Assembly (NCBI GenBank): GCA_964551375.1
Contig: CAZKBG010000001.1
Location: forward strand, 240,001-272,000
Length of the DNA stretch: 32,000 nt
From: an uncultured archaeon
GTDB lineage: Archaea > Iainarchaeota > Iainarchaeia > Iainarchaeales > JAAZKV01
Direction: 5' to 3'
Both the position numbers and the translations under genes were made by a program. Positions 1-8,070 of this stretch are shown piece after piece. A model generated the notes under the pieces. That model was not told the origin of the DNA and made no database searches. It worked only from the letters and a program-made list of their open reading frames with translations. Every line of letters starts with the position of its first letter. Position 1 is the first letter of the stretch.

Positions 1-1
1 A

Positions 2-388
2 TTCATCGGGGACGCAATTGTGATTGAACTAAGATATCCAATGCCTGACTTGAGTTTTGTTCAGCCAAATGACATAGTATTTTTTTACACAGGGCACTCA
101 AACAAAGCCTTCACAAAAGATTACTTTGAGAAAAATCCGGTAATAACCCCTGAAATAGCTGAAGCTTTGATTAAAAAAAGAATAAAAATAGTCGGAATTG
201 ACTCATTCAGCCCTGATAATGAGCCTTATGAAGTTCACAAAATGTTTTTTGAAAAAAGCATCCCGATTGTAGAAAATCTTGTAAGCCTTGACAAACTTGT
301 GAATAAAAGATTCAAATGCATTATCCTGCCAATAAAATTGGAAGAAGCTGACGGAGCGCCGTGCAGAGTTGTGGGCATAATTGAATAA
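2..388 (+). CDS. cyclase-family protein (arylformamidase/kynurenine-formamidase-like), 3' part; the 5' end lies outside the window
   Basis: The frame is open from base 2 to TAA at 386-388, so the ORF-track GTG at 20 is probably internal. The pattern IVFFYTGHS...KIVGIDSFSPD...EVHKMFF...IPIVENL...GAPCRVVGI resembles the C-terminal half of cyclase-fold hydrolases (by eye). Confidence 0.6.
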   Translation, partial: FIGDAIVIELRYPMPDLSFVQPNDIVFFYTGHSNKAFTKDYFEKNPVITPEIAEALIKKRIKIVGIDSFSPDNEPYEVHKMFFEKSIPIVENLVSLDKLVNKRFKCIILPIKLEEADGAPCRVVGIIE

Positions 389-430
389 ACTAAGAAAAAG
401 CTAATAAAAAAAATAATTTGCGCTTAATCT

Positions 431-1123
431 TTATCTAAGCGCATCATCAATTTTCTGCTTTAAAGTTGCGTAAGGAACCGCTCCAACTACTAAAACCCCT
501 TCGCCGGTAGTCTTTCCAACAACAAAAGAAGGAGTTCCGTTAATTCCAATCCTTGCGCCCTCATTAGCATCAGATATTATTGCTGAATCAAACTTTCCTG
601 ACAAAAGGCAAGTGTTGAATGAATTAACATCAACGCCGATTTCTCCCGCCCAAGAGGATACATTAGCAAGGGTCACTGATTGAACCATATTATATGTATT
701 GCCTGCAAGCTCCTGCTGTTTGTTATACATTTTATCATGCATTTCAAAATATTTTCCCTGCTCTCCAGCGCATCTTCCCGCATAAGCGTACATTCCCGCA
801 AGAGGGTGCCCGTTAAGAGGCAAATCCTTAAAGATAAATTTTACTTTTCCAGTGTTAACATAATCAGAAACAAGCTGGGCCTTTGATTCAATGAACCATT
901 TTCTGCAAAACGGGCACTGAAAATCAGAATATTCTATAACCGTAACCGGCGCAGAATCAGAGCCAAGGCTTCCTGCCCCTGCCGATGAAAGAGTTCCTAA
1001 ATTAACTTTTGTTTCCTGCTGTGTACAGCCAAGCAATACTACCAGCGCAAAGATAAGCGCACTGAAAATAATTAATTTCCCCGAGTTCTTCAAGCAAAAC
1101 ACCCACAGTTTATTGGAACACAA
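431..1123 (-). CDS. secreted/anchored DsbA-like thiol:disulfide oxidoreductase (thioredoxin fold)
   Basis: CPFC redox motif in YSDFQCPFCRKW. The N-terminal hydrophobic signal/anchor ends in LLGC (lipobox-like). The ORF-track start is TTG at 1123; the in-frame TTG at 1093 (MKNSGKLIIF...) gives a more typical signal peptide. Confidence 0.75.
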   Translation of the reverse strand: MCSNKLWVFCLKNSGKLIIFSALIFALVVLLGCTQQETKVNLGTLSSAGAGSLGSDSAPVTVIEYSDFQCPFCRKWFIESKAQLVSDYVNTGKVKFIFKDLPLNGHPLAGMYAYAGRCAGEQGKYFEMHDKMYNKQQELAGNTYNMVQSVTLANVSSWAGEIGVDVNSFNTCLLSGKFDSAIISDANEGARIGINGTPSFVVGKTTGEGVLVVGAVPYATLKQKIDDALR

Positions 1124-1278
1124 GTATTAAAGAGGTAACCGCTAAAGAAAAATTAAAGAAACCAAAACAAAAATCTCTGCAAAAATCACTAACGTGAAAT
1201 TTTTTATCCGCATTTTTGGGGCACAGAGCCAAATACCCCAATCAGAAGCTTTTTATATTACAAAGGCCTAATTTGAGC

Positions 1279-1533
1279 ATGAAAAATTCAAACATAAAAA
1301 ATAATTCTGCAGACAGGATTCACAATTTATCAAAAAATGTTGTCTGGTGGAAAGTTGTAGGAGTAATTATTGGCGGATTTGCTTTAGGAATAGTTATTTC
1401 AAATTATTTCTTCAGCTACACAATTGGTGTTGATTCAATTTTTCAAGGAATACAACTATTACTAATAGCATGTATCCTGGCATTACTTCTTGATGTGCGC
1501 AGACTAATAATCAATTCAGCTAACCGGTGCTAA
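1279..1533 (+). CDS. small membrane protein, unknown function
   Basis: ATG at 1279 lies in frame with the ORF-track TTG at 1216. Two hydrophobic stretches (VVWWKVVGVIIGGFALGIVISNYFF and LLLIACILALLL). No recognisable family. Confidence 0.45.
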   Translation: MKNSNIKNNSADRIHNLSKNVVWWKVVGVIIGGFALGIVISNYFFSYTIGVDSIFQGIQLLLIACILALLLDVRRLIINSANRC

Positions 1534-1640
1534 CAACCATCAATAAAACTGGTTTTCTTAATCGAACAATAAAGTTAGTGATTAAGTTCTCTGTATGAAA
1601 ACACCAAAAAGCATTTAATTAACAAAATGAGTAAATTAGT

Positions 1641-2321
1641 ATGCGAGTAAAGCCAAAGGCAAAAGCTCTAAAGAAAGCGCCAATTCCTACGCGCTCAAAA
1701 AAAGCGGCAATTGAAAGAAGATTTCTAAAAAACCCGTTAAAAACAAAATCACTAATAGTAACAGCATGGTTTAGAAAATACTTACGAGAAAACAAAGGCC
1801 TATTAACTTCATTCTTAAAAGCAAGAAGAGAACTTCACAAAGGAAGAGCAGTGGCATTTCAAGAAGGAAAAGTAACTCTTGCATTTCATGATGACCCAAA
1901 CGCAAGCGCATCAGCTCATTTATATAAATTAACGCTTGGAAAAGATATTTTCTTTATTAAAGAACAAAGAGAAGGAAAAAACAGGCACAAATTCAAAGCG
2001 CATCTTGATGTCGCTGACAAACAAATAATGGCGCTTGAGAAAGCAAGAAAAGTTTTGAAAGGAAACCCAGATTTTGAAGTAGCAAACTATCACATGGGGT
2101 GGACAAGCGGGCACAACTCATTTTTAGTAACCGAACACTACCATGGAGTGCTTGTTGAACACATGCGCCCAAGCCAAGGCTGGATAGACCACAAATTCAA
2201 ACCAACAAGAATGAAATTACTTGAAGCAGGACTTGAAGACTTTGGCGTCCACAACTTAATTTACGACGCAGAAAGAAAAAAATGCATAATAATAGATTTG
2301 AGACTATCTGGATACTCCTAA
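1641..2321 (+). CDS. basic orphan protein with a putative minimal protein-kinase-like fold
   Basis: 226-aa ORF with ATG start and a Lys/Arg-rich N-terminal tail. C-terminal EDFGVHNLIYDAERKKCIIIDL has an Asp with Asn at +5, followed by a hydrophobic-Asp strand, like the catalytic loop plus DFG-equivalent of RIO/Bud32/Kdo-kinase-type enzymes. Upstream, FFIKE could supply the beta3 Lys and FLVTEHYHG a hinge. The fold call is inference only. Confidence 0.7.
   Translation: MRVKPKAKALKKAPIPTRSKKAAIERRFLKNPLKTKSLIVTAWFRKYLRENKGLLTSFLKARRELHKGRAVAFQEGKVTLAFHDDPNASASAHLYKLTLGKDIFFIKEQREGKNRHKFKAHLDVADKQIMALEKARKVLKGNPDFEVANYHMGWTSGHNSFLVTEHYHGVLVEHMRPSQGWIDHKFKPTRMKLLEAGLEDFGVHNLIYDAERKKCIIIDLRLSGYS
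2226..2305 (+). repeat. left copy of an 80-nt direct repeat (3' end of the 1641..2321 CDS)
   Basis: Identical to 3816..3895 except 2288 (a) versus 3878 (t). The offset is exactly 1590 nt. Confidence 0.95.
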
Positions 2322-2392
2322 TAATTTAGTAAATCACTTAATCGTTTTAGATATTCTTAAATATAATAAAATCTTAGTAATAGTTGACTTTT

Positions 2393-3214
2393 ATGGCAAT
2401 ATTAAGCTCATTTGACAAAATTGCGCTTGTCGGAATAATAATATGTTTAGCATTAATATTTGCTTCAGCAGCAGGACTTGATTTAGCAAAACCATACCAC
2501 CAATTTACTCAAATGGTATTCGGCACAGAAGCCGTAACGGATTCTAATGGAGTACTTTTGGCAAAATACGGCGGAACAGGAGTAGCAAAATGCGGAACAG
2601 GAGATGTGCTTGTTTGGAACAATACACAAAATAAATGGATATGCACTAACATGTTCGGACCGGGGAGCCCGCCAACAGCAACACTAACCGCAACACCAAC
2701 AACAGTAAATTATGGAGGAGCATCAAGCATAATTTGGAGCTCAACAAACGCAGACACTTGCGTTGTTAGAAAAAACGGAGCAGCATTCTCAACATTACTT
2801 TCAAGCACAGGAACAACTTCAGGCGCGCTTACTGCAAACCCAACAAACTTTGATATAAACTGCACAAACATAAACGGCTCAAACGCGCTAATCACTGTAC
2901 CAATATCAGTAACTGACAATTACCCAGCGCCCCCAGCAGGCGTTTTAGTTTACGACAGCGGATGGCAAGCATGGAACCCAGTATCAATATCACTAAACCA
3001 CACAAGCGTTCCAGTTGCAAACCAAAACGTAGTAGCATACGTTGGATGGGCTCAAAGCCCAGTGCCAGCACACGCAGCAACAAACTTCACAAGCTACGGC
3101 TCAACAGCAGCATACAGAATAACCGCAAAAGCAACAACTTACCTAACGATCACAAGAAGCGGACAAGCAGGCGAGCCATACTACTACTGGGTAAGGATAT
3201 ATTCGACGGCTTGA
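2393..3214 (+). CDS. secreted/anchored protein with a Thr/Ser-rich Ig-like module
   Basis: ATG at 2393 (the ORF-track start is TTG at 2384). N-terminal hydrophobic segment IALVGIIICLALIFASAAG. Module ATLTATPTTVNYGGASSIIWSSTNADTC...DINCTNINGSNALITVPISV has the beta-sandwich repeat pattern common in surface proteins. Several N-x-S/T sequons. Confidence 0.7.
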   Translation: MAILSSFDKIALVGIIICLALIFASAAGLDLAKPYHQFTQMVFGTEAVTDSNGVLLAKYGGTGVAKCGTGDVLVWNNTQNKWICTNMFGPGSPPTATLTATPTTVNYGGASSIIWSSTNADTCVVRKNGAAFSTLLSSTGTTSGALTANPTNFDINCTNINGSNALITVPISVTDNYPAPPAGVLVYDSGWQAWNPVSISLNHTSVPVANQNVVAYVGWAQSPVPAHAATNFTSYGSTAAYRITAKATTYLTITRSGQAGEPYYYWVRIYSTA

Positions 3215-3254
3215 AAAAAGAAATAATTAAATACTAAAAACATCCCATCACATT

Positions 3255-3566
3255 ATGAACGAGAATGAAATTAGATCGCTTTACTTAGCCAGTGCTGTCC
3301 CACTTTTACTTGTCGGACTTTTCATAATATTTATAGTATTATTTGGAAATTATGACCGCACAATTACCACAACAGGTTTTATTAACGGCTTAATTATTTT
3401 TTTAATCGCAATAGTCCCATCGATATACTTTTGTGCGTTTAAATTTTATGAATATAACAAGAAGGTTCATTCGCTTAAATTGACAAAAGTAGGAATTTTG
3501 ATTAATGCAGCATATTATGTTTTTATTTTTATATTTATTTTTCTGATGATTATTAGCATAATTTAG
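3255..3566 (+). CDS. small polytopic membrane protein, unknown function
   Basis: 103-aa ORF with ATG start and three long hydrophobic segments. Very AT-rich, no recognisable motif. Confidence 0.55.
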   Translation: MNENEIRSLYLASAVPLLLVGLFIIFIVLFGNYDRTITTTGFINGLIIFLIAIVPSIYFCAFKFYEYNKKVHSLKLTKVGILINAAYYVFIFIFIFLMIISII

Positions 3567-3623
3567 AAATAGCGAATATGAACACTTTTGTTATACCCAA
3601 ACCGTGTTAGCGATTGGCAATGA

Positions 3624-3905
3624 AATACCTCAACCAACCAACTTCATACAACTTTTAGGCTGGAAAAAAGAGACACGCTCACAATATTCCCAAGCAGCGA
3701 AGAAAAACAAGTTCTAATTGTAAAAAGAGTAATAAGCGTTGAAAATCAACCTCAACGAGAACTAAGCCCAAAACAAAAAGCCCACGCTGAAAAACTAAAA
3801 CAAGCATTCTCAACTGCAGGACTTGAAGACTTTGGCGTCCACAACTTAATTTACGACGCAGAAAGAAAAAAATGCATTATAATAGATTTGAGACTCACAA
3901 GCTAA
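3624..3905 (+). pseudogene. startless 5'-truncated paralog (remnant) of the 1641..2321 kinase-like gene
   Basis: Open frame of 93 codons from the TGA at 3621-3623 to TAA at 3903-3905, with no in-frame ATG/GTG/TTG before its last few codons. It translates to ...EEKQVLIVKRVISVENQPQRELSPKQKAHAEKLKQAFSTAGLEDFGVHNLIYDAERKKCIIIDLRLTS. The last 27 aa match the parent, and the VLIVKR strand sits at the same 40-residue spacing from the EDFGVHN loop as FLVTEH does in the parent. Confidence 0.65.
3816..3895 (+). repeat. right copy of the 80-nt direct repeat
   Basis: 79/80 identity to 2226..2305, read directly from the sequence. Confidence 0.95.
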
Positions 3906-3915
3906 AAAGCAGATG

Positions 3916-4998
3916 TCATCTTTTCAAATACACCGTCTGGGAAGGGAAAGCAAAGCTGATTTTGGCTTTCTCAAAATCTTTTTTTATCCTCAACCCCACA
4001 ATGTCTCGGGCTTGAAGCATTTCCTTATGAACGCCGTGCTTGGTGTAAAAAATAATCTCAATATCAAGCGAACTTGCGCCAAATCCCTTAAACACTACTG
4101 TATAATCATCATCGCACAAATCGCACTCCTTAATAGCGGTCTTGATTATCTTCTTCGCCAGTTCAAGCTTTTTATTTGAAGTATCAAAAGTCAAACCAAT
4201 AGTCCACACGACCTTCTTCTTAGGCGCGCCGGTAATATTTGTCAAAATTTCGCTTGCCAAAATGCTATTCGGCACCACAACAAGCTGCTTGTCAAGATCG
4301 CGAACCTTAGTATGCCTAAGATTAATCTCCTCAACCTTCCCAGTATACTGCCCGTTTGAAAACTTAATCGTATCCCCAACGACAAAAGGGCGCGAAAACA
4401 AAATAGATAAACCTCCAAAAGCATCAGCAATAGTTTTCTGAGCAGCAAAAGCAAGCGCAATACCCCCAATACCAAGCCCCGCAAGCAAAGACCAGACATC
4501 AATCCCCATATTGTCAAGAACAATGATAATTCCAATACAAATCAACCCAACTTTCACAGACTTCTTTAACCACGGCAGAATCTGGTCATCAAGCTTACTG
4601 TCACTCCTATCAGTAATCGGCTTTAAGATGCGCTCAAACAAAGAATCAACAAGCTTTACTACAAACCAAATAATGTTCAGCATGAACAAAACTTTAATCA
4701 CAGTATAAAAAGTTTCAGAAACAGACTCGGGAAAAACAAGAAACTGATAACCTGCAACAAAACCGCCAAGCACAATTATAAAAGCAAAAGGCTCCTCTGC
4801 CAAGTCAACTAAAATATCATCAATATCGGTTTTTGTCTTTTTTGTAAACTTGTGCAAAACATTCTTTGAAAAATAAAGAACAATCTGTGAAAGAACAATT
4901 GCCCCAACAACTACTCCCAACGCATAGCCCCAGCTCTCAATAGAATTGCCGAAATAAACAAACTGCAAAAAGTCCACAGCCATAAAAATCACCGACAA
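3916..4998 (-). CDS. MscS-family small-conductance mechanosensitive channel
   Basis: N-terminal TM helices followed by GLGIGGIALAFAAQKTIADAFGGLSILFSRPFVVGDTIKF...GKVEEINLRHTKVRDLDKQLVVVPNS, the hallmark TM3 plus beta-domain pattern of MscS. Confidence 0.85.
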   Translation of the reverse strand: MSVIFMAVDFLQFVYFGNSIESWGYALGVVVGAIVLSQIVLYFSKNVLHKFTKKTKTDIDDILVDLAEEPFAFIIVLGGFVAGYQFLVFPESVSETFYTVIKVLFMLNIIWFVVKLVDSLFERILKPITDRSDSKLDDQILPWLKKSVKVGLICIGIIIVLDNMGIDVWSLLAGLGIGGIALAFAAQKTIADAFGGLSILFSRPFVVGDTIKFSNGQYTGKVEEINLRHTKVRDLDKQLVVVPNSILASEILTNITGAPKKKVVWTIGLTFDTSNKKLELAKKIIKTAIKECDLCDDDYTVVFKGFGASSLDIEIIFYTKHGVHKEMLQARDIVGLRIKKDFEKAKISFAFPSQTVYLKR

Positions 4999-5018
4999 TT
5001 AATGAAAATTTTAGTAGA

Positions 5019-5091
5019 TACCCCAACCGGGATTCGGACCCGGGTTACAAGCTTGAAAGGCTCGTGTGCTTGACCGCTGCACTATTGGGGC
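5019..5091 (-). tRNA. tRNA-Glu (anticodon UUC), 73 nt, no encoded CCA
   Basis: The minus-strand sequence GCCCCAA-TA-GTGC-AGCGGTCAA-GCAC-A-CGAGC-CTTTCAA-GCTTG-TAAC-CCGGG-TCCGAAT-CCCGG-TTGGGGT-A folds as a cloverleaf. It has a 7-bp acceptor stem (G1-U72), a 4-bp D stem, a 5-bp anticodon stem with loop CTTTCAA (U33, TTC, A37) and a 5-bp T stem. Confidence 0.85.
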
Positions 5092-5152
5092 AATCAACTC
5101 AACCAACTATCCAATAGTGCGTTCGTTTTCGCCAGCCTTTTTCTAAAAGGCT

Positions 5153-5169
5153 GCTGCACTATTGGGGCA
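5153..5169 (-). repeat. 17-nt duplicate of the tRNA-Glu 5' end in the tRNA leader
   Basis: gctgcactattggggca occurs at 5076..5092 (tRNA 5' end plus 1 nt) and again at 5153..5169. Between them, 5111..5120 (ccaatagtgc) is the exact reverse complement of 10 nt of both copies, and 5134..5152 is an 8-bp/3-nt-loop hairpin. Confidence 0.9.
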
Positions 5170-5270
5170 TGAAATTATTTTGTTTTCATGCGAGGCTTTG
5201 CCTCAGTTAAGTTTTTTGTTTTAGTAAAAAGTTTGGGAGGAAAATCGTTTATAAAGCTTTCATTTGGGGG

Positions 5271-5651
5271 TTAATTTTTGCCCGCGAGCATTCTTGCAAC
5301 TCTTTTTGCGTCTCTTCGCTTTGCAAGGTTTCTTTTGAGCTGGCTTTCAAGTTCAAGCTCTCTTCTCATTCCGCTATTTACAATTCCCAAGTCTCCAGTC
5401 ACTGCTCCTGTGAACTGCCTGTCCCTTGCTCTACGCATGCCTGTATTTATTTCTCCAAGCGCAGGGCTTGTTCTTCTTCGCTCAAATTTCAAAAATTCAG
5501 CAGCTACTTTTCTTCTCGCAGCAATCATCGGTCTTCTTCTTGGAGCAACCATTAAACCATCACTAAAGTATTTCTTCTTTAGAAGTATAAATGCTTTGCC
5601 CCTAAAGGAAGCGCTTAGGGCTTTTTGGGGACTTTTGTTTTTGAAGCCCAA
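5271..5651 (-). CDS. Arg/Lys-rich orphan protein (start uncertain)
   Basis: AGA/AAA/GCA codon usage matches the other genes here, whereas the overlapping plus-strand ORF 5278..5703 is Leu/Ser/Phe-rich like an antisense artefact. The ORF-track start is TTG at 5651. The first ATG, at 5552, is preceded by AGTGATGG (SD-like) and would give a 93-aa protein. Internal short repeat N-[TS]-G-M-R-R occurs twice. Confidence 0.5.
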   Translation of the reverse strand: MGFKNKSPQKALSASFRGKAFILLKKKYFSDGLMVAPRRRPMIAARRKVAAEFLKFERRRTSPALGEINTGMRRARDRQFTGAVTGDLGIVNSGMRRELELESQLKRNLAKRRDAKRVARMLAGKN

Positions 5652-5702
5652 AACAACCCTTATAAAGCTTTGGCTGTTGATTTCTTTGATAGGTGAGTTT
5701 TA

Positions 5703-5867
5703 GTGGCTGACTTCAAAGAATCATTGGCAAGAAGATTCAATAATGTTTACATCTGCCAAAGGTGCAATGCAACAAACAGATCTTCTTCAGGACTTCCTGC
5801 CCAGTGCAGAAAGTGCGGTTCAAAGAGATTAAGATTAAAGAAGAAAAAGAAGAAGGCTGCTGCTTAA
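5703..5867 (+). CDS. rpl40e: ribosomal protein L40e (zinc-ribbon)
   Basis: This 54-aa ORF is below the ORF-track cutoff. GTG start at 5703 follows AGGTGAG (SD) at 5-nt spacing. Product: VADFKESLARRFNNVYICQRCNATNRSSSGLPAQCRKCGSKRLRLKKKKKKAAA. The CxxC...CxxC arrangement and basic tail match archaeal L40e. Confidence 0.75.
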   Translation: MADFKESLARRFNNVYICQRCNATNRSSSGLPAQCRKCGSKRLRLKKKKKKAAA

Positions 5868-5895
5868 AAGCAGGCTTCTTTTTAGAACTTTTTTT
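5850..5895 (+). terminator. hairpin plus oligo-T tracts downstream of rpl40e
   Basis: aagaaggctgc (5850-5860) pairs with gcaggcttctt (5870-5880) with one mismatch. T5 (5879-5883) and T7 (5889-5895) follow. Oligo-T is the usual archaeal termination signal. Confidence 0.45.
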
Positions 5896-6042
5896 GCTTG
5901 GCTCAAATTTTTATCAAAAATCCCAGGCAGGTTTTTAAACGTTTTACTCTTGACTTCTGTCCGCAAAATATGCTAAGAGGAATTTAATTAAATAATTTGA
6001 TAACACGCTATAAGTTCAGATAAATAAGCAAGAGGATTATTC

Positions 6043-7857
6043 ATGGTTGCAATGGGACTGTTTGTTCAAATGGCGGAAATTATTGTTGCCGCCACTATCA
6101 TCAGCCTTGTCTTAAGAAAACTAAAACAGCCAAATTTATTTGCTTATATTATTGCCGGAATTGTAATAGGCCCTTTTGTTTTAGGAGCATTTGATTTGAG
6201 TTTCTTGAATCTGCCTTTTGCTTTGGGAATAAAAGAAATAACTCCGGAGATTCACTTATTATCAGAGCTTGGCGCAGCGTTTTTGTTATTCTCAATCGGA
6301 ATTGAAACATCAGTAAAAAGACTCCTTCAAATGGGAAAACCATTACTTGCAGGAACCTTCATGCAGGTTGTTGGAGTAATTTTAGTAACAGTAATTTTAA
6401 CAAATTTTACAGGAATGCTTCCTTTAGAAACTTCACTATTCCTTGGAACAATAATCGCATTCTCCTCAACTATGATAGTAATCAAACTCTTAGCTGATAA
6501 GAAGGAAACTAACACATTGAATGGAAGAGTCACTATTTCAATTTTATTAATTCAGGACTTTTTAGTAATAATATTCGTTCCACTTTTACAAAATGTTTCA
6601 AAAATCGGGGACCCAACTTTCTTTGCCCCGATTGTAGCCCAAACAGTAGCCCTTTTGGCAATTGCCCTTCTTGCAAACAAATTCCTCTTCCCAAAATTGT
6701 TCTCAATTGCGGCAAAGGATAATGAATTATTTTTCCTCTCAAGCATCTCAACAGCATTTTTATTTATTGGAGTGAGTTATATTTTAGGAATACCAATTTC
6801 AATCGGAGCCTTCATTGGAGGACTTGCATTAAGCAGTCTGCCTTACAACACAGCAGTATTTTCAAAAGTAAGAGCTCTTCGAGACTTCTTCTTAACAATA
6901 TTCTTTGTTTCCTTGGGAGCAACTTTAACATTTGCGTTTGGAAGCCTGCCAATATTATTAATGATAACAATAATTCTCTTAATTTTTGTATTCAAACCCC
7001 TAGTATTTTATGCAGTGAGCCTGCTTTCAGGGTACGGCTCAAGACTTGCGCTTGAAGTCGGAATGACGCTTGCACAGGTGTCAGAATTCGGATTTGTAAT
7101 TGTAGCACTGGGCGCCGCAGCAACGCTTGCAAACGGAGAATCAATAATCTCGCAAAGCCTTGCTTCATTCATAATCGCAATTTCTGCAATCTCAATGATG
7201 GTAACCCCGCATTTGATGAATTATTCCCCAAAAATGGCAAATATTGTTTCGCTTAAAATGAATAAATGGTTTAAAGTTGACCAAAATAAACGCTTGAATA
7301 AAAGAATTGATGATTTAAGAAAAATGCCTTCAAAGGAAAAATTGCAAAATCATATTATTGTAATAGGGGGCGGGCTTTTAGGGAGAAGACTTGCAAGAAA
7401 GCTGAAAATTAACTCAAAAGTAATTATTGTTGACGCTGATCCGGAAGTGGTTCTTCAGGGACAGCATGACAAACTTGATTTTGTTTACGGGACTTCAGAA
7501 GATGTGGAGCTTTTGGAAAAACTTGATTTTGAAGACGCAAAATTAGTCCTTATTGCGATGACAGCCCATAAAGAAGCGTGCAATTTTGTCATGGCATTAA
7601 AGAGAATGTCCCCCAAAACAAAAATATTCGCTATTTCAAATCACTTTTATAACGCGGTGGAGCTTTACGCTAAAGGAGTGGAGTACGTTTCAATCCCGCC
7701 AATTTCTGGAACGCAGGAAATTTATAATTTAATTGATAACTTCGGGAAAACAAGAAAAGTTTTCATAAGCCAAAAAGCAAAAGAAGCGCATATTAATTAC
7801 ATCAAATCACAGGCTGAAGAAGAATTAAAGTATAGAAAGAGATTAATGGTAATTTAG
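6043..7857 (+). CDS. CPA2-family monovalent cation:proton antiporter (Kef/NapA-like) with C-terminal RCK/TrkA-N domain
   Basis: About 12 TM segments with an N-terminus IIAGIVIGPFVLG typical of the Na+/H+ exchanger family. The C-terminal Rossmann motif IIVIGGGLLGRRLARKL...VIIVDADPE indicates an RCK domain. Confidence 0.85.
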   Translation: MVAMGLFVQMAEIIVAATIISLVLRKLKQPNLFAYIIAGIVIGPFVLGAFDLSFLNLPFALGIKEITPEIHLLSELGAAFLLFSIGIETSVKRLLQMGKPLLAGTFMQVVGVILVTVILTNFTGMLPLETSLFLGTIIAFSSTMIVIKLLADKKETNTLNGRVTISILLIQDFLVIIFVPLLQNVSKIGDPTFFAPIVAQTVALLAIALLANKFLFPKLFSIAAKDNELFFLSSISTAFLFIGVSYILGIPISIGAFIGGLALSSLPYNTAVFSKVRALRDFFLTIFFVSLGATLTFAFGSLPILLMITIILLIFVFKPLVFYAVSLLSGYGSRLALEVGMTLAQVSEFGFVIVALGAAATLANGESIISQSLASFIIAISAISMMVTPHLMNYSPKMANIVSLKMNKWFKVDQNKRLNKRIDDLRKMPSKEKLQNHIIVIGGGLLGRRLARKLKINSKVIIVDADPEVVLQGQHDKLDFVYGTSEDVELLEKLDFEDAKLVLIAMTAHKEACNFVMALKRMSPKTKIFAISNHFYNAVELYAKGVEYVSIPPISGTQEIYNLIDNFGKTRKVFISQKAKEAHINYIKSQAEEELKYRKRLMVI

Positions 7858-7869
7858 TTAAAACCGTTT

Positions 7870-8070
7870 TTACCTTGGCTTTTTTCTTCTGCTTCTTGCC
7901 CATCTCATCTTTAATTCATCCGCAAGAGCAACTCTCTGCGATTGAGTAAGCTGAGACGAAATCTTAACGCCTTTACTCCAAACGCTTGGAAGTCTTCTGC
8001 CGCTTTCAAGCTTTAAAATCAGTTTTCTATCAATCTTTCTCTTGGCTTTGGTTGACATTCGCCTTGGCAT
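7870..8070 (-). CDS. small basic protein, possibly L39e-like
   Basis: ATG at 8070 is preceded by AAGGAGTG (SD); the ORF-track GTG at 8079 lies inside that SD. KRKIDRKLILKLESGRRLPSVW resembles the L39e core (R-I-K-R-x-L-A-K-K-x-K-x-N-R-P-I-P-x-W) and RWARSRRK resembles its RHWRRTKL tail, but about 15 extra residues lie between them. Confidence 0.4.
   Translation of the reverse strand: MPRRMSTKAKRKIDRKLILKLESGRRLPSVWSKGVKISSQLTQSQRVALADELKMRWARSRRKKPR

Follow-up and report, generated by a model that had tools for sequence, protein, structure and literature searches.

An 80-bp direct repeat at the end of a kinase-like gene brackets an insertion that carries a mobile-element gene fragment in an uncultured archaeon of the Iainarchaeales

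The subject of this analysis is a pair of nearly identical 80-nucleotide (nt) direct repeats in the genome of an uncultured archaeon of the Iainarchaeales, together with the 1.5 kb of DNA between them. The window that we analyzed is a stretch of 32,000 nt (assembly GCA_964551375.1, contig CAZKBG010000001.1, positions 240,001 to 272,000 of the forward strand), and all positions below are counted from its first letter unless another contig is named. The left copy of the repeat is the 3' end of an intact kinase-like gene, which we call K, and the right copy lies directly before a gene for an MscS-type mechanosensitive channel (Table 1). We conclude that what this unusual host carries at the locus is the ordinary scar of an insertion and not a decayed twin gene of K. 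The explanation that we favor, at a probability of roughly 45%, is that the DNA between the repeats is the decayed, integrase-less remnant of an integrating element that entered the 3' end of K.

The left and right copies are identical at 79 of 80 positions, and the sole mismatch is at repeat position 63, where the left copy has A (position 2288) and the right copy has T (position 3878). Both edges of the repeat are sharp, since just outside them the in-register identity is random (2 to 11 matches per 20 nt). The left copy makes up the final 27 codons of intact K, with the C-terminal SGYS and the stop codon encoded by insert-side DNA. A preliminary description of this DNA, made from its letters and open reading frames, had reported a near-perfect 80-nt direct repeat with dissimilar flanks, the left copy of which is the 3' end of an intact kinase-like gene, and these statements agree with what we find. 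When the window's own genome (1.09 Mb in 10 contigs) was searched for further copies of the 80-mer, exactly 2 copies were found, which are those described here. A comparison of this genome with itself by BLAST at ≥97% identity revealed no further internal repeat; the remaining matches are only 55-nt overlaps of contig ends and one 55-mer adjoining an N gap. The contig ends that overlap share exactly 55 nt in the order C1 to C4 to C6 to C2 and back to C1, which indicates that the final assembly k was 55 and that the chromosome closes as a circle of ~1.054 Mb.

Logan contigs from run SRR12133403, which were assembled separately at k = 31, provide an independent check of the repeat arms. Three of them are 100% identical to the window: L149 ends at window position 2255, L148 covers positions 2258 to 3845, and L146 begins at position 3848. 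These four contig ends are the limits of the unique 31-mers around the 62-nt core that the two copies share exactly. The locus is reproduced by contigs of a second run, SRR12133404, as well. Because the contigs reproduce the junctions, all four repeat arms are present in the reads, although the joining of one arm to another across the 62-nt core is not resolvable in a k = 31 graph.

Comparison of synteny in related genomes, which the preliminary description had proposed as a check, revealed an empty site. The closest relative with DNA available is a genome of the same genus, G004, in which the K protein is ~80% identical and the MscS protein 91 to 92% identical to those of the window. In G004, K is directly convergent on the MscS gene, and the scaffold is colinear with the window minus positions 2306 to 3895. 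The G004 scaffold has a short assembly gap at this site, which is considered below with the other points that weigh against our explanation. The bases between this gap and the MscS stop codon align with the tail that follows the right copy in the window (tail B), and there is no similarity between this tail and the one that follows the left copy (tail A). The alignment with G004 indicates that tail B, with which K would end in LTS, is the ancestral end of K, and that tail A, with which K now ends in LSGYS, arrived with the insert. The earlier suggestion that recombination between the repeats would leave K intact and ending in LTS is supported. The G004 sequence differs from the window repeat at 7 of 66 comparable positions, while the two copies in the window differ from each other at 1 of 80, which indicates that the duplication is much younger than the split of the two species. 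At the position where the window copies differ, G004 has A, as does the left copy. This sharing is expected if the crossover took place within the last 17 bases.

Other sources of the K locus are few. A scan of genome contigs for K or the 80-mer found G004 only, and exact-pattern and protein scans of metagenome contigs for either of them found nothing, nor did a scan of viral contigs. An exact look-up of K gave no match; in the k = 31 contigs, K is cut at the repeat. The closest homologue of K is P0003 (88% identity, tail LASHY), which lies on a contig from the Joint Genome Institute (JGI; sample 3300075153) downstream of the same genes as K, and this contig ends 104 nt past its K gene. Between the DsbA-like gene and K, the JGI contig has a minus-strand gene of 391 codons where the window has an 84-residue membrane open reading frame (positions 1279 to 1533), and this difference points to variation between strains in the region upstream of K as well.

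The nature of the DNA that adjoins the right copy follows from database searches. The right copy terminates a stop-free frame of 93 codons (positions 3624 to 3905) that has no ATG, GTG, or TTG start, as had been described before. When 1.84 billion representative proteins were searched with this 93-residue frame, there were two matches. One is P0003, an orthologue of K, which matches only the repeated part of the frame. The other is P0004, a protein of 91 residues, which matches residues 12 to 63 (phmmer, 52% identity; 52 to 54% protein identity overall). A profile of the K family that was built without K matches the frame only from residue 43, which is ~22 residues before the repeat, and this profile finds nothing credible in residues 1 to 64 alone. 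A word-based search for homologues with the right-hand frame gave no match. The part of the frame before the repeat (positions 3624 to 3815) had been taken for the C-lobe of a paralog of K. Based on the K-family profile and the P0004 match, a kinase remnant in residues 1 to 64 is rejected, and that identification does not hold.

The similarity to P0004 is also present in the DNA. Window positions 3660 to 3808 are 72% identical, over ~150 nt, to the P0004 gene on a circular element, L052, and tblastn extends the homology upstream in a second frame, in which 'GNEIPQPTNFIQLLGWKK' aligns with 'GLYINLPREYMQLLNWKK' of P0004. The window fragment therefore reads 'GNEIPQPTNFIQLLGWKK' and then, after a shift of one base, passes into the frame that reads 'KRDTLTIFPSSEEKQ...KLKQAFST'. 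The shift is a one-base deletion beside a run of A residues, at which L052 has TGGAAAAAAAGCGAC and the window has TGGAAAAAAGAGAC, and an independent Logan contig has the same sequence as the window at this frameshift. The P0004-like frame opens at position 3562 without an ATG; its sole possible start, a GTG at position 3604, would cut the first strand of the protein. Where P0004 has its final ~12 codons, the window has the repeat. We also considered an ATG at position 3620 as the start of the P0004-like gene and rejected it, because the homologous frame is the one that opens at position 3562. As judged from these sequence comparisons, positions 3562 to 3815 appear to be a dead fragment of a P0004-like gene. 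P0004 itself gave a weak match to the Pfam family MazE_antitoxin (PF04014, AbrB/SpoVT/MazE-type) with an E value of 0.005 and 17.3 bits, which is below the cutoff of 24.7.

P0004 is carried on Logan contigs of 9,388 nt from several runs. These contigs are circular permutations with a 30-nt overlap, which indicates a circle of ~9.36 kb (L051 to L054, Logan runs SRR27710317-321). A gene for a 441-residue tyrosine integrase (PF00589, 4e-23) is ~200 nt away from P0004 on this circle and divergent from it, and the circle further encodes a 941-residue protein without a Pfam match and a histone-fold protein. This circle is likely to be an integrative plasmid or virus that has DPANN-type archaea as its hosts. 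It also has a noncoding stretch of 520 nt with short tandem motifs, and L052 contains no K-like sequence and no tRNA gene. Among the 196 genomes of the order that were searched, P0004-like genes are present in 10 others besides that of the window, and in 6 of these 10 there are element genes nearby: an integrase gene in four (G165, G188, G084, and G192), an 80-residue N-terminal integrase fragment in G162 (E = 2.5e-10), and the C terminus of the 941-residue protein in G095. Within the genus of the window, no P0004-like gene was found in the other 21 genomes. In G084, the integrase gene of the P0004-type element directly follows a tRNA-Met gene (L070; contig C4, positions 54 to 128). A second copy of this tRNA with 49 nt upstream of it, 94% identical, is present on another contig of the same genome (C85, positions 363 to 486), and the similarity stops at the tRNA 3' end, so these two loci are likely the integration site in its filled and empty states. 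Because of the element genes near 6 of the 10 P0004-like genes, and because of the tRNA-Met site in G084, we conclude that P0004-like genes are characteristic of a family of small integrative elements. The DNA that adjoins the right copy in the window is of mobile-element origin.

Two further observations concern the integrated relatives of this family. No direct repeats flank three of them (L069, L070, and L071) within the DNA examined. In G162 (L067; contig C11, positions 371 to 933), the P0004-like gene is divergent from the 80-residue integrase fragment, which directly adjoins ordinary host genes; this may be either a decayed element or an integrase gene that was split by integration, as in SSV-type elements.

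Elements that integrate into the 3' ends of genes usually leave the target intact with a replaced tail. In the explanation that we favor, an element carrying a copy of the K 3' end would have integrated site-specifically, at an att-type site, into the last 27 codons of K, and this integration would have duplicated 80 bp of the target. At the left copy, K would have been kept intact with the new, insert-encoded tail LSGYS, while the right copy would be the orphaned original end of K, with the tail LTS, still adjoining the MscS gene. The integrase gene and most other genes of the element would have been lost afterwards, and the repeat-flanked remnant would have stayed. Among the three possible explanations in the preliminary description was one in which the cassette had been inserted here by recombination, and with K directly convergent on MscS in G004 it is the best fit of the three. 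On the same reading, the junctions would have been made by an integrase, and the 80-bp copies may still recombine, either homologously or by means of an integrase acting in trans, and thereby delete the cassette. A more far-reaching version, which we consider quite improbable, is that the two copies still function as attachment sites for a mini-element that lacks an integrase and would be the archaeal equivalent of cis-mobilizable elements. Its variable surface-protein cassette would be switched in and out at the end of K, either by homologous recombination or by an integrase that a visiting plasmid provides in trans. If this were true, cells with and without the surface protein would coexist in the population.

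Several observations weigh against integration of an element by its own integrase. With an integrase profile, window positions 1 to 8000 were searched for an integrase or a remnant of one, and none was detected in the repeat interval or its vicinity, and the window's own genome has no close relative of the L052-type integrase, its sole tyrosine-recombinase match being only 24% identical and far away. The integration site of the related elements seems to be flanked by the 5' ends of two genes, those of the integrase and of P0004, whereas in the window the repeat adjoins the fragment's 3' end, and the site of one related element is beside a tRNA-Met gene. With no ATG, a frameshift, and its 3' end lost, the fragment is more like a captured piece than like the intact end of an element. 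Among 40 other loci of the K family, each examined over about ±10 kb, none has a comparable repeat at its 3' end, which indicates that the K 3' end is not a recurrent integration site. Viral and metagenome collections did not yield an element with the 80-mer. Finally, the empty site in G004 contains a gap of 10 N, which stands for ~18 to 28 nt just inside the equivalent of the repeat, on a scaffold of 3.7x coverage, and at that coverage such a gap is expected by chance.

The lack of an integrase remnant, the geometry of the P0004-like fragment, the loss of its start and 3' end, and the 0 of 40 K-family loci with a repeat keep two other origins of the insert under serious consideration. In one of them, a small circle that already had ~80 bp of a K 3' end, such as a plasmid piece that had excised imprecisely or recombined, inserted by a single RadA-mediated crossover within this homology, as in Campbell-type integration, without an integrase. 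This would produce the same final structure, and it accounts for the missing integrase remnant, for the noncanonical position of the P0004-like fragment, and for the fact that K 3' ends do not recur as targets. In the assembly graph, one repeat and the insert together make up a closed unit of 1,590 bp. However, it requires an earlier, unobserved event that placed 80 bp of K, with non-K DNA on both sides, on a circle. We found no such circle or donor, and since tail A is unlike the ancestral tail, the captured end of K would have to come from a different lineage. We regard a crossover of this kind as rather unlikely. In the other, a break near the end of K was repaired illegitimately or by replication, with template switching or end joining that drew on two or more sources (a surface-gene locus and a plasmid) and resumed 80 bp upstream. 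The mosaic composition of the insert, the P0004-like piece with neither a start codon nor a 3' end, and the absence of a recombinase are consistent with such a repair, as is a 3-nt identity (ACT) at the end of both the repeat and the insert. Against this, an 80-bp duplication is long for such events, the microhomology at the junction is minimal and could be due to chance, and there is no second example in an otherwise repeat-free genome. We consider a repair origin unlikely.

We considered two further alternatives. The preliminary description had suggested tandem paralogs, that is, a second K-family gene downstream of K whose 3' end was homogenized by gene conversion while the rest of it decayed. 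There are K-family tandem arrays in other genomes, in some of which the 3' ends are 80 to 88% alike over ~50 nt, and the K-family profile does align to the right-hand frame from shortly before the repeat. But the DNA upstream of the right copy, back to position 3562, is homologous to P0004 and not to K; there is no other K-like remnant in any frame of the cassette; and at the G004 locus there is a single K beside MscS. A decayed tandem paralog is thus highly improbable. It is also very unlikely that the arrangement is an artefact, in which the k = 55 assembler threaded the cassette into a chromosome where MscS in fact directly follows K. The cassette would then be a 1,590-bp circle of its own, or part of another molecule, with 62 to 80 nt in common with the chromosome. 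The final k of 55 is indeed shorter than the 62-nt exact core, and the k = 31 graph fits either layout equally well. Nevertheless, a circle of 1.6 kb with no replication gene and with a dead gene fragment is an implausible replicon, and 62 nt is easily spanned by the read pairs on which an assembler at k = 55 relies to resolve repeats; for these two reasons we consider an artefact unlikely. In addition, the assembly links K to the A variant of the repeat and the end of the cassette to the T variant.

Table 1. Positions of the features at the K locus in the window
Feature	Position	Strand	Basis or remark
K, 226-codon intact kinase-like gene	1641..2321	+	Open reading frame, family alignment, AlphaFold, Foldseek
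Left repeat copy	2226-2305	+	80 nt; K codons A196 to L222
Tail A: last K codons (SGYS, stop), then 71-nt AT-rich spacer	2306..2392	+	Sequence
273-residue membrane-anchored all-beta surface protein	2393..3214	+	Open reading frame, homologues
103-residue small membrane protein	3255..3566	+	Three hydrophobic helices by inspection
P0004-like mobile-element gene fragment, apparently dead	3562..3815	+	phmmer, DNA identity, two-frame tblastn
A-run at the one-base deletion that shifts the P0004-like frame	3664..3669	+	Comparison with L052
Right repeat copy	3816-3895	+	80 nt
Tail B: ancestral K end (..L-T-S, stop 3903-3905) and MscS junction	3896..3915	+	Homologous to the G004 K-MscS junction
MscS-type mechanosensitive channel gene, convergent on K	3916..4983	-	Pfam, synteny

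The insert is foreign DNA of mosaic composition, 1,510 bp long, and contains genes for a surface protein and for a small protein with three putative transmembrane helices, together with the P0004-like fragment. The surface protein has an N-terminal membrane helix, and its first ~90 residues belong to a family with six further copies in the same genome and others in the genus. Its C-terminal part is nearly unique, with one weak relative found. The whole protein has no Pfam match, and a single-sequence AlphaFold model of it has a predicted local distance difference test (pLDDT) score of 40. The preliminary description had placed genes for a secreted Ig-like protein and a small membrane protein between the copies, and its "Ig-like" label for the former is not confirmed. 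The members of the surface family (window positions 2393 to 2660 and, in the same genome, C1:412881-416038 and C2:46137-47976) have a conserved N-terminal anchor and hypervariable C termini, and several of them have repeated C-x-DG-x-VLKW-...-W-x-C modules or collagen-like GPxG repeats. A search for relatives of the 103-residue protein found none. The cassette DNA was not found in a search of 40 relatives, and none of the other 21 genomes in the genus has it.

K has no Pfam match above threshold and no PHROG match. Its family is absent from Pfam as well and is present in 64 of the 196 genomes of the order, where it is often multicopy, in tandem, or fragmented. All members stop just past a conserved '..IDL(R)' motif. 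In an alignment of 11 members, the residues K107, N205, and D219 never vary and the conservation of D200 is ≥90%, and the AlphaFold model of K that was built on this alignment has a pLDDT of 81. When this model was compared with the PDB by Foldseek, the top 50 matches were all protein kinases (E values of ~1e-5 to 1e-4), and there were 79 matches at E ≤0.001; the TM-scores against PDB kinases are only 0.3 to 0.44. A profile alignment of the family to the granulovirus PK-1 kinase in the PDB places the D-x4-N and Asp motifs opposite each other, but weakly (E = 0.66). The modeled fold and the motifs support the description of K as kinase-like. Like a eukaryotic-type protein kinase, K would have a beta-rich N-lobe, the conserved beta3 Lys (K107), the catalytic Asp-x4-Asn motif (D200 and N205), and the metal-binding Asp (D219). 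In contrast to such kinases, K ends at residue 226, which is 7 residues past D219, and it has no activation segment, no C-lobe helices, and no Pfam family.

DPANN-type archaea have tiny, almost repeat-free genomes, and gene gain in them is little understood. [quoted passage not shown] The locus is thus a concrete and datable example of gene gain linked to a mobile element, and it corrects a tempting misreading as a decayed kinase paralog. It also points to three uncharted families, which are the minimal kinase-like proteins, the plasmids with an integrase and P0004, and the variable surface proteins.

The final structure of the locus can be compared with those left by three known processes. 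Campbell integration is known mainly from laboratory suicide vectors and from the reintegration of episomes. It likewise places inserted DNA between direct copies of a shared segment and is reversible by recombination between these copies, but for the window locus no natural source is evident from which a circle could have obtained 80 bp of K. Archaeal integrative plasmids and viruses of the pNOB8 and SSV types have tyrosine integrases, insert into tRNA genes, and leave a duplication of tens of bases from the target's 3' end. The window locus is similar in that the P0004-like fragment comes from small circular elements with tyrosine integrases, one relative of which lies beside a tRNA-Met gene. 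It differs in that the target is a protein-coding gene and not a tRNA gene, in that there is no integrase gene, whole or split, and in that the insert is only 1.5 kb.

In the explanation favored here, the remnant would resemble cis-mobilizable elements (CIMEs), which are decayed integrative elements that have kept attL and attR and have lost their integration genes (PMC5704250). CIMEs have been described in bacteria, namely streptococci, and derive from conjugative elements, whereas the window locus is in a DPANN-type archaeon. The repeats in the window are candidate recombinase sites without a known cognate integrase, and the remnant gene is in the wrong orientation compared with its intact relatives. 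What the window locus shares with CIMEs is a pair of direct repeats around a short, integrase-less insert, one of which overlaps the 3' end of an intact target gene; a remnant, within the insert, of a gene that is typical of integrase-bearing elements; and an empty site in a relative.

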